Below, piece after piece: positions 19,109-21,789 of a stretch of DNA of 64,000 nucleotides. Position 1 is the first letter of the stretch. Each line of letters opens with the position of its first letter. The notes beneath the pieces were generated by a model, which was not told the origin of the DNA, made no database searches, and worked only from the letters and a program-made list of their open reading frames with translations. Location: the NCBI GenBank assembly GCA_944386415.1, contig CALXAY010000002.1, forward strand, positions 22,297 through 86,296, in the 5' to 3' direction. The position numbers and the translations under genes are program-made. The DNA is from an uncultured Clostridia bacterium. GTDB taxonomy: Bacteria > Bacillota > Clostridia > TANB77 > CAG-508.

Positions 19109-20383
19109 TTAGAAATGCTTATTAAATTTATAATTATCATATTCTAACATATTTTTAAATATTATATCTATAACTATTTCATATAGTATCTTTGTTCTTT
19201 CATAAATCCAATCAAAATCTATGTTTTCTACTCTATAATTTTTAGGATTTGCCTTATTATTTATATTTTCAAAAGCAATGTATAGTTTTTTATTTGGTAT
19301 ATGATAGCCATTATGTACATAATGATTTCTTAAGCATATTATTTCTTGTACCATATTTTCAATATTTTTTATCTTTTCATTATCCTTATAATTATTTTCA
19401 ATACCATATTTTATAAATGAATTCTTTATACCTTTTATTGATTGCTGTTTATAGTAACACTCTATAAATCTATAAAACATTAAAAAATTATCTTCTATGT
19501 TTCTTGAAGTATTCAATATTATATATGGTATATTTCTTACCTCATTTTTGCTATTTCTATATGGTATTGTTGTATAGCATCTAAATAAAAATTGTAATAA
19601 ATTATCTTTTACACTATTATCAACATATGAATTCTTATAATCAATATCTTTTATAGGAATACATATTTCAAAGAAAATTTTATTAATTTCTACTAAAACT
19701 CTATCAATAATAAATTTACATGGTTTTAATAATTGACAAAACATAATTAACTCATTTATGTACTCATAAACTTCTTCATAACTAATACTTTTATTTAAAT
19801 TAATATCAATATATCCACCTAAATTAACATCTATTTTATTATTTTTTCTATTAAATTCACTTTTCCAATCATCTGATACTTCTATAGATTTGATATTATT
19901 TTGATTAATTTCAACTTTTTGTTTTTCTGTATTTCTTTTTAACTTAATGATATATTCATTTTCTATTTCTTCTTTAGATACACTTGGATAACCAATTAGT
20001 TCATTTATCATTTTACTATATACTCTAATCTTATTTATGTTTTTATCATTAGAGATATCACATAGTTTCTCATAGTTTCCATATTTAAAATAATATCTTG
20101 TAAAAAACTTCGTTTTATATCCACCATCTGGAGTCCCTAAAACTTCTGAGTGTCCATTACAATTAGCATTTTTTAATAAATAATTCATTCTACCAAAATA
20201 ATCAATTATTAATATATCTCTTTCTTTAAATTCTGTATAACTTCCAAATGTTCTAATCCCATTTATTTCTGGTATTTCATCCATAATATCATAATTAACA
20301 ATAACTTCTATTCCATCATTTTTTATTTCATATTGACAGTCATATTTTTCATTATATTTACCGTCAAAAAAGCAAACAGCCAT
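19109..20383 (-). CDS. Possible HEPN-type (Rx4H motif) protein, possibly ApeA-like, third gene of the TIR operon
   Basis: C-terminal LRNHYVHNG contains an Rx4H motif. The 424-aa protein starts 12 nt after the TM-Macro gene with GGGAG upstream. The N-terminal part was not recognised. Confidence 0.35.
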   Translation of the reverse strand: MAVCFFDGKYNEKYDCQYEIKNDGIEVIVNYDIMDEIPEINGIRTFGSYTEFKERDILIIDYFGRMNYLLKNANCNGHSEVLGTPDGGYKTKFFTRYYFKYGNYEKLCDISNDKNINKIRVYSKMINELIGYPSVSKEEIENEYIIKLKRNTEKQKVEINQNNIKSIEVSDDWKSEFNRKNNKIDVNLGGYIDINLNKSISYEEVYEYINELIMFCQLLKPCKFIIDRVLVEINKIFFEICIPIKDIDYKNSYVDNSVKDNLLQFLFRCYTTIPYRNSKNEVRNIPYIILNTSRNIEDNFLMFYRFIECYYKQQSIKGIKNSFIKYGIENNYKDNEKIKNIENMVQEIICLRNHYVHNGYHIPNKKLYIAFENINNKANPKNYRVENIDFDWIYERTKILYEIVIDIIFKNMLEYDNYKFNKHF

Positions 20384-20395
20384 CCTTACACTCCC

Positions 20396-21289
20396 TTATT
20401 CTATCCCTATTCCACTTTTATCATTGTCTAATTTTTCATATTGATATTTACATGTAAATTTCATATATTCAATTAATTCATTTATATCTATATTATATTT
20501 TTTAATATCTTCTTTCCTTATATAAACAATTAATTCTGTTGATATTTTTTTTGTAGTATTATTAGCCACAAATGAAAAAATAATATTCTTAAATATTTCC
20601 TCTCGTGAACTAACTATTCCCATTCTTCCTGTTCCTATAATAGGAATTGCAATTGGTTCAACGTGTCCAACCTCTCCAATATGTTGCCATAAACGAGAAA
20701 GCGCATCTGTAATATTCATTGTGGAAGGATTTATTGTTTGACCTTTTGAATTTATATCTGAATCTGCAAGAAAATAAAATCTTTTTCCATTTTGATTAAT
20801 TTCAACAGTAGTTCCAATTTCATATTTTTTATTTTTTGAACTTTTTCTGTCTGTTAACTCAATAAATGGGCTATTTTCTAATTCTTTTTCAATTAGACAG
20901 TCTAATGTACTGATATTATTCTTAAAATATTTATCTTGAACTTGTCCCTGTACACTATGTATACTAATAAAGTCTTTTTCCATTTTCGTATCAAAAGTTG
21001 TATTTGTTGGCACTACTATTGCAAATTTCTCTTTTAAAATATCTCCAACTTTTAAAATAATCTTTATATCTCTATTTTTTATATTAAAAACATATTCCTT
21101 TTTAGGTATATTGAAAATAATAATACTTATCACACCTATAATTAGTGCAATCCAAAAAACAATTTGTGGAATATCAATTTTTAAAAGTGTAAAAAATTCA
21201 TTAATAGTTACAATTGTTCCAATATAAGCTAATATACTAATAATATCTTTTTTTATTACTGGCCATATATTCTTATATACGTAATCCAT
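20396..21289 (-). CDS. thsA: Membrane-anchored Macro-like effector, type II Thoeris ThsA-like
   Basis: Two N-terminal TM helices (ISILAYIGTIVTINEFFTLL and IVFWIALIIGVISIIIFNI), then a roughly 220-aa domain with FAIVVPTNTTFD and IAIPIIGTGRMG (macro-like glycine loop). The ATG overlaps the TIR gene stop (TAATG). Confidence 0.45.
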   Translation of the reverse strand: MDYVYKNIWPVIKKDIISILAYIGTIVTINEFFTLLKIDIPQIVFWIALIIGVISIIIFNIPKKEYVFNIKNRDIKIILKVGDILKEKFAIVVPTNTTFDTKMEKDFISIHSVQGQVQDKYFKNNISTLDCLIEKELENSPFIELTDRKSSKNKKYEIGTTVEINQNGKRFYFLADSDINSKGQTINPSTMNITDALSRLWQHIGEVGHVEPIAIPIIGTGRMGIVSSREEIFKNIIFSFVANNTTKKISTELIVYIRKEDIKKYNIDINELIEYMKFTCKYQYEKLDNDKSGIGIE

Positions 21290-21789
21290 TATAATCCCAA
21301 ATTCCTATATACATTATCATTATAATAATAAGCTCCCGTTTTTCCTTCTCTACTGTATTGCTCATGTGAACTAGGCCAATTTTCAAGAGCATACTGTAAA
21401 ATTTTTGAATTATAGCTTATATGTATTGCTAAATGTTCTCTCATTAGGGCTGGACATTTATCAGTGTCTAAGCTTTTTTTACCATTCAAATTAACTACAA
21501 TGCATGGAATATCTCTTTTTATTGCTTGTTCAATTTCCCACCTTACATATTTATATAAATATTTTGTGTGATCTCCCACTAATAAAACAAATACTTTTGT
21601 ATTTCTAAATCTTTCTTGTAATCCAGCTTTTATAGATTCTTCACTTTTATCATATATATTATTTAAATCATGTGCATCATAAAAGTTAAAGTCTGTATTA
21701 TCATTTTGTTTCCAAGCTTTCATTAGATAATAGTACTTTAAATCATTATCCGCATCCATCGATACATAAACTTTATTTTTATAACTCAT
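21289..21789 (-). CDS. thsB: TIR-like (DUF1863-type) protein, Thoeris ThsB-like
   Basis: KVYVSMDADNDLKYY.. N-terminus and VRWEIEQAIKRDIPCIVVNL (putative catalytic Glu context), typical of bacterial TIR-like domains. GGAGGAG is upstream. Confidence 0.5.
   Translation of the reverse strand: MSYKNKVYVSMDADNDLKYYYLMKAWKQNDNTDFNFYDAHDLNNIYDKSEESIKAGLQERFRNTKVFVLLVGDHTKYLYKYVRWEIEQAIKRDIPCIVVNLNGKKSLDTDKCPALMREHLAIHISYNSKILQYALENWPSSHEQYSREGKTGAYYYNDNVYRNLGL

Follow-up and report, generated by a model that had tools for sequence, protein, structure and literature searches.

Does a gene that lies directly behind a known anti-phage system, on the same strand and only a few nucleotides away, belong to that system? 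This question is raised by a 64,000-nt stretch of DNA from an uncultured Clostridia bacterium (GenBank assembly GCA_944386415.1, contig CALXAY010000002.1, positions 22,297 to 86,296; called the window in the following), in which three genes of the minus strand follow one another: thsB, thsA and a third one, here referred to as gene3. The original prediction regarded the first two as the TIR protein and the Macro-domain protein of a type II Thoeris system and proposed that gene3, which encodes a possible HEPN-type RNase, extends this system to three components. From the results presented here, we consider it likely that the locus comprises two independent anti-phage modules in one transcript, stacked within an integrative mobilisable element (IME), in its cargo slot. 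The three genes are tightly packed behind a conserved promoter, and the two modules are separable, each of them being found without the other.

The first two genes could be assigned by profile and structure-based searches. ThsB matches Pfam ThsB_TIR (6.2e-18) and, over its full length, the PADLOC model ThsB PDLC00429 (2.1e-75), and it aligns end to end with PDB entry 8v6t (1.4e-31). In this alignment E85 (motif RWEIE) lies opposite the glutamate of HEID, and by analogy with TIR NADases it would be the catalytic glutamate of the TIR domain. ThsA matches Pfam ThsA_Macro (2.5e-44, residues 78-258, covering the entire profile), PADLOC ThsA PDLC00414 (5.9e-55) and the solved ThsA Macro domains 8v6q (6.8e-12) and 8v6s; Pfam, PADLOC and PDB thus agree on a ThsA-type Macro domain and not SIR2-SLOG as its effector domain type. 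Hydropathy according to Kyte-Doolittle (19-residue windows, threshold 1.6) revealed two N-terminal hydrophobic segments, at residues ~16-34 (marginal) and ~40-61 (strong), with windows above the threshold at ~16-34 and at 32-65 (peak 2.87). The adjacency of thsB and thsA is the same in all related loci inspected. By sequence, the pair is a canonical type II Thoeris of two genes, an already-known system. In this respect the original prediction was borne out in full: the TIR-like gene, the Macro-like protein with two transmembrane segments, their type II layout and the strong matches to both profiles that it had suggested as a check. In type II Thoeris, the TIR protein produces histidine-ADP-ribose (His-ADPR) upon infection (Sabonis et al., bioRxiv 10.1101/2024.01.03.573942), and binding of His-ADPR by the Macro domain of the effector is reported to set off a cell-killing membrane pore (10.1101/2024.01.03.573942; summarised in 10.64898/2025.12.03.692087).

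Variation was also seen at the 5′ side of the pair. In five related type II Thoeris loci (L065-L069; ThsA 61-65% identical), an extra gene of 110-114 aa is located directly upstream of thsB, overlapping the thsB start in L065-L067 and ending 10 nt short of thsB in L068 and L069. Some variants of type II Thoeris may have it as a true accessory gene.

The packing of the three genes is as predicted. The stop codon of thsB and the start codon of thsA share one base in the sequence TAATG (21287-21291, reverse complement), and the 3′-end of thsA, GAATAA on the minus strand, is followed by the 12-nt spacer GGGAGTGTAAGG, which contains a plausible ribosome-binding site of its own for gene3, and then by the gene3 ATG. 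The sole recognisable promoter of the three genes is the conserved TGTGATATAAT 5′ of thsB. One terminator-like site was found in the region 18900-22100, where 0.5 are expected: a hairpin with a 15-bp stem including 3 GC pairs and T-runs on either side, located between gene3 and a convergent DUF6076 gene, which agrees with the bidirectional terminator postulated earlier. Since there is one promoter before thsB, a spacer too short for another and one terminator after gene3, the three genes are probably transcribed as a single unit, in line with the operon that had been proposed.

Such an operon would suit a true three-component Thoeris, in which gene3 acted as a second or backup effector triggered by the TIR-made signal, so that membrane damage would be combined with RNA cleavage. 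This reading, which we regard as very unlikely, can draw on the probable co-transcription, on the maintenance of the trio across many samples while gene3 diverged to 77% identity, and on the ligand activation of the HEPN protein ApeA, which makes a nucleotide-triggered HEPN protein plausible in principle. The distribution of gene3 homologues speaks against it. A genome scan with a gene3 alignment (A1) yielded 22 loci in GTDB species representatives, with gene3 homologues of 48-73% identity, and screening of these loci by phmmer with the window proteins only detected ThsA or ThsB within 6 kb in none of them. The co-occurrence across genomes, whose absence the original prediction had named as a refutation, is therefore missing, gene3 standing without ThsBA in 22 of 22 loci. 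Among the flanking genes that were additionally scanned with profiles (one KAP NTPase, one 206-aa protein, the upstream genes of L042, L049 and L054, and the downstream gene of L057), no TIR or Macro protein was present. Nor was a Macro, SLOG or further known signal-binding domain of Thoeris detected in any member of the gene3 family.

The reverse comparison relied on a metagenome scan for ThsA, which gave 3 close loci, and otherwise on protein homologues and contig look-ups. The element that carries the trio has the order integrase, cargo slot, DUF6076 gene, HTH_17, Phage_rep_org_N, a DnaC/IstB-like gene and relaxase. The integrase, whose counterparts in the loci L019-L036 match Phage_int_SAM_3 and Phage_integrase, marks one edge of the slot; the DUF6076 gene is kept at its position in all element variants and forms the other. 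The identical element occurs at different chromosomal sites in different samples, the flank past the integrase being different. We conclude that thsB, thsA and gene3 are carried in the variable cargo slot of an IME. To our knowledge, and with no literature search directed at them, this element family and its slot have not been described before.

The content of this slot varies. It can hold ThsB-ThsA-gene3 (gene3 at 100%, 77% and 77% identity to the window copy), a KAP NTPase followed by gene3 (80%, 76% and 69-73%), gene3 as the sole gene behind the slot promoter with a convergent DUF4238 gene downstream (69%), or ThsB-ThsA without gene3 (ThsA at 75%, 65% and 61% identity). The KAP NTPase is a 638-aa P-loop protein matching the PADLOC candidate PDC-S49 (1.3e-57). 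The intergenic region between integrase and cargo is homologous across five aligned element variants, and TGTGATATAAT is kept regardless of whether the first cargo gene is thsB, the KAP NTPase gene or gene3, the ribosome-binding site of that gene coming next. Relatives of gene3 at 80%, 76% and 69% identity thus occupy the same slot without Thoeris, and more distant ones lie behind the reverse transcriptase AbiP2 (55%) or in an McrBC island (52%).

A neighbour-joining tree of the gene3 proteins points in the same direction. Thoeris-linked and KAP-linked copies interleave, so that the Thoeris-linked copies are not monophyletic: the KAP-linked copy P0013 and the Thoeris-linked copy P0025 are 92% identical, and the window copy, which shares 77-78% identity with the other Thoeris-linked copies, has a KAP-linked protein as its nearest relative. 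As judged from the sequences, gene3 is paired with Thoeris only in some variants of a single element lineage, within which cassettes were swapped repeatedly. Taken together, the 22 loci, the close homologues without Thoeris, the occurrence of ThsBA without gene3 and the interleaved tree argue against the third component that had been proposed.

Further details of the element were recorded. The KAP NTPase and gene3, separated by 24-43 nt, were found in the loci L038-L041 and L070-L074 (e.g. 2060-3976 and 4001-5272 in L070), and among the loci with gene3 homologues that were looked up this arrangement was seen more often than Thoeris-gene3. In some samples the integrase is split into two open reading frames (ORFs) (L001:4565-5757, L032:3174-4370), and in one sample thsA is split as well (178 + 124 aa; the coordinates of the split ORFs include L030:1610-2502), which suggests that some copies are decaying or were misassembled. 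A search for attachment-site repeats in positions 1-24000 of the window gave none that was convincing, and the element probably extends past the left edge of the window. The positions of the relevant features are compiled in Table 1.

Table 1. Features of the thsB-thsA-gene3 locus, of the surrounding element and of related loci (positions refer to the window unless a locus is named).
Feature	Position	Strand	Remarks
thsB	21789..21289	minus	ORF of 166 aa
thsA	21289..20396	minus	ORF of 297 aa
gene3	20383..19109	minus	ORF of 424 aa
Ribosome-binding site of gene3, GGGAG	20395..20391	minus	Plausible; within the thsA-gene3 spacer
Cargo promoter, extended -10 TGTGATATAAT	21814..21824	minus	~25 nt upstream of the thsB start; putative function
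Hairpin terminator	19065-19101	both	Serves gene3 (minus) and the convergent DUF6076 gene (plus)
DUF6076 gene	17832..19070	plus	Pfam DUF6076, 9.6e-08; convergent with gene3
Tyrosine integrase	22016..23218	plus	Divergent from the cargo operon; right end of the element
Relaxase	14221-15600		Element backbone
DnaC/IstB-like ATPase	16270-16923		Element backbone
Phage_rep_org_N	16889-17416		Element backbone
HTH_17	17444-17644		Element backbone
PSP1 and DNA polymerase III delta-prime genes	23606-25413		Chromosomal neighbours of the insertion
Extra 110-114-aa gene	L065, L066, L067: 3160-3504; L068: 3158-3490; L069: 198-530		No Pfam match

Past the relaxase, the same element carries three very large genes on the minus strand (35-13886), whose products are a 944-aa SNF2-type helicase, a 1578-aa methylase of the Eco57I/N6 type and a 2091-aa DEAD helicase that has an MrfA Zn-binding/DUF1998-type domain. 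This combination looks like a DISARM-type system, and the element would therefore carry at least three defence modules.

Beyond the element, gene3 homologues are located in a range of defence contexts: 16 nt behind AbiP2 (PADLOC 6e-178), in an island with McrBC and DUF6119, behind a methylase and helicase-like pair which on inspection of the sequence resembles a type III restriction-modification system, adjoining ShosT, and between a large serine recombinase and an endolysin; DUF4238 is a further neighbour. The frequent position of gene3 12-43 nt behind a gene of the same strand (thsA, the KAP NTPase gene, AbiP2 at 16 nt, a 206-aa protein gene at ~20 nt) could mean that gene3 is a generic downstream effector for whichever "sensor" is encoded upstream. 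We hold this to be improbable, since these upstream genes share no common domain, and type II Thoeris, AbiP2 and PDC-S49 are modelled as complete systems without gene3 (the single-gene status of PDC-S49 being inferred from its PADLOC naming). Moreover, gene3 can follow the element promoter directly, without any partner, and gaps of 230-730 nt or an upstream gene on the opposite strand are found as well.

The 206-aa protein gene lies ~20 nt 5′ of the gene3 homologue in six loci from metagenome-assembled genomes (MAGs) of Bacilli (L046:5362-5982, L047, L050, L051, L052 and L056), and the protein weakly matches DUF4145, a HEPN family (E = 0.0045). In the four loci where the gene further upstream is visible, it is a 529-aa gene; its copy in L046 resembles a large serine recombinase, and downstream of the gene3 homologue L046 has an endolysin-like LysM gene. 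The 206-aa protein and gene3 might constitute a two-gene unit at a prophage end.

In this element family no other gene is found in the cargo slot as constantly as gene3, and HEPN domains are common in toxins. It might thus be asked whether gene3 stabilises the element as an addiction toxin, comparable to the HEPN toxin of HepT/MntA-type pairs, and has no part in phage defence. Across its contexts, however, gene3 has no small antitoxin-like neighbour, whether MNT or another, that is conserved, and a toxin-antitoxin assignment was rejected for this reason. Some element variants lack gene3, defence islands and prophage ends outside the element harbour it as well, and an N-terminal domain of ~250 aa is more typical of sensor-effector defence proteins. 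Therefore, we assign only a small probability to an addiction function and favour gene3 as a defence module in its own right.

What kind of protein does gene3 encode? The window copy gave no match at E <= 1 in Pfam, PADLOC or NCBIfam, and tblastn searches with gene3 against phage and plasmid collections were likewise without a match. The family is small, with 314 clusters in a set of 5.8 billion proteins and, at 50% clustering, 160 representatives; almost every full-length member is ~420 aa long and derives from a MAG of gut Clostridia, Bacilli or "Tenericutes". An alignment of 38 members, the most distant at 18-25% identity, has no more than five invariant columns: E297, R352, N353, H357 and L413. 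The Rx4H motif of the original prediction, R352-N353-x3-H357, reads RNHYVH in the window copy and LRNHYVHxGY as the family form. One Rx4H in a protein of 424 aa is little more than chance would give (~0.3 expected by our estimate), but R352, N353 and H357 account for three of the five invariant columns, and because of this conservation the motif is taken as real.

Matches to the N-terminal region were obtained from the wider family. Pfam ApeA_NTD1 (PF18862) was matched by 8 of 28 close homologues over residues ~5-270 (best 2.3e-07), and its gathering cut-off (25.5 bits) was exceeded by 4 of 7 members scanned singly, the window copy and most of the family remaining below the threshold. Among distant members there was also a weak match to HEPN_AbiV (E = 0.0016). 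Profile searches with distant members did not reach canonical ApeA, and sequence searches of the PDB with profiles of full-length gene3 and of its C-terminal domain returned nothing meaningful. An AlphaFold2 model built on the family alignment (predicted local distance difference test, pLDDT, 88; predicted template-modelling score, pTM, 0.84) comprises a beta-rich domain (1-241) and a helical domain (262-412). When modelled alone (pLDDT 91), the latter forms four long helices, with RNxxxH where the third one ends and a beta insertion separating this helix from the fourth; in the model, this insertion parallels those published for HEPN_ApeA. In Foldseek searches with the full-length model, the N-terminal domain (~1-241; window 19660-20383) gave weak and repeated matches to Hcp of type VI secretion systems and to phage tail-tube folds (best E 5e-3 and 6e-3 in PDB and BFVD; template-modelling score relative to the target 0.4-0.6; none at E <= 1e-3). 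This modelled resemblance is weak and should be taken as a lead and not as a finding.

"ApeA-NTD1 + HEPN" is the best-fitting known architecture for gene3, of which gene3 would be a divergent new member with a putative function. On the basis of its sequence the protein may be called ApeA-like or HEPN-like; it is not ApeA in the experimental sense. Together with its genomic contexts, this makes gene3 probably an independent single-gene candidate for a defence RNase.

The favoured explanation, two modules in one transcript, can be worded as a mechanism in which the chemistry of both modules, the RNase activity of gene3 and its role in defence are inferred. Both modules would be co-transcribed from the cargo promoter of the element. 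By analogy with characterised systems, ThsB would sense infection and make a signal of the histidine-ADPR type, which would bind to the Macro domain of the membrane protein ThsA, and ThsA would then damage the membrane. The beta-rich N-terminal domain of gene3 would be the presumed sensor of an infection cue, its HEPN-type domain would probably dimerise or assemble into a higher oligomer, giving a composite RNase site, and activated gene3 would probably cleave tRNA or other RNA. This sensor-effector model of gene3 is put forward because of the invariant catalytic-type motif, the analogy with ApeA and the consistent location in defence islands.

Several observations weigh against this explanation. 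Within the lineage in which they co-occur, the three genes are stable (gene3 at 77-100% identity, many samples), and as gene3, behind a spacer of 12-14 nt, has no obvious promoter to itself, its expression is coupled to that of Thoeris. Genomic context is the sole basis for a role of gene3 in defence. The mechanistic analogy with ApeA is loose, because the characterised ApeA proteins are ~600 aa long and mainly helical. The HEPN-type assignment, already tentative when first made, stands with regard to the conserved RNxxxH and the ApeA-like architecture, the HEPN fold itself being putative: Pfam HEPN_Apea was matched weakly (E = 0.05) by 2 of the 38 members, both distant ones, the PADLOC ApeA models were not matched at E <= 10 by any of the 38, and a Foldseek search of the C-terminal domain model against the PDB retrieved no HEPN structure (best E 1.7).

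A more far-reaching possibility is that gene3 was recruited in this particular lineage as a second arm of Thoeris, either as a HEPN RNase sensing the His-ADPR-type signal or a consequence of ThsA action, or as a backup for the case that phage sponges neutralise Thoeris; separately, its N-terminal domain could sense phage tail proteins directly. We consider these ideas highly speculative and their probability low. Were gene3 functionally coupled to Thoeris, it would represent a signal-activated HEPN effector without a recognisable Macro or SLOG sensor, which the present evidence makes unlikely. The value of the locus lies in a clean case of defence-cassette swapping within the slot of an element. 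That genes on a mobile element are tightly packed into an operon does not show that they are functionally coupled, as the same slot and promoter carry swappable defence cassettes. A by-product is the compact ~420-aa ApeA-NTD1/HEPN-like family of gut Clostridia and Bacilli, which is absent from PADLOC v2.0.0, mostly unrecognised by Pfam and, being consistently found in defence contexts, a reasonable candidate for a single-gene defence system.

In comparison with known systems, the thsB-thsA pair shows no substantive difference from type II Thoeris: two overlapping genes with the TIR gene first and the transmembrane-Macro gene second, the corresponding profile matches, matches to the solved Macro (8v6q, 8v6s) and TIR (8v6t) structures, and the retained TIR glutamate E85. 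What differs is the context, an IME of Clostridia with an unrelated gene next in the same transcript.

For gene3, the closest experimentally characterised counterpart is ApeA, a single-gene HEPN defence system (Gao 2020, as cited in later work; bioRxiv 10.64898/2026.01.26.701840 and 10.64898/2026.03.20.713152). ApeA-type proteins cleave the tRNA anticodon on ligand binding, and cleavage of phage RNA has been reported as well; small nucleotide ligands activate them from a pocket distant from the active site, with ligands of some homologues being unknown. Both gene3 and ApeA combine an N-terminal (in gene3, putative) sensing region and a C-terminal HEPN-type domain in one polypeptide, both have the RNxxxH form (RNHYVH in gene3, RNKITH as the catalytic motif of Ec1ApeA) as well as insertions ahead of helix 1 and between helices 3 and 4, and both are stand-alone genes in defence islands. 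In contrast to the predominantly alpha-helical ApeA of ~600 aa with its N-terminal domain, Mid domain and HEPN_ApeA domain, gene3 is a protein of 424 aa with a beta-rich N-terminal domain; it has no PADLOC ApeA match, and Pfam HEPN_Apea remains below the threshold. The computational architecture "ApeA-NTD1 + HEPN(Apea)" was described in 2013 (Anantharaman et al., PMC3710099; Pfam PF18862), and the gene3 family may follow this description, 4 of 7 singly scanned members matching PF18862 above its gathering cut-off and the modelled N-terminal domain being mostly beta. The family reported here differs as a compact subfamily of low-GC gut Clostridia and Bacilli lying mostly below the Pfam threshold.

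Finally, the element resembles the defence-cassette hotspots of IMEs and prophages. It has a fixed slot with a conserved promoter between integrase and backbone, and this slot is filled with interchangeable cassettes, namely ThsBA, the KAP NTPase/PDC-S49, DUF4238 and gene3.

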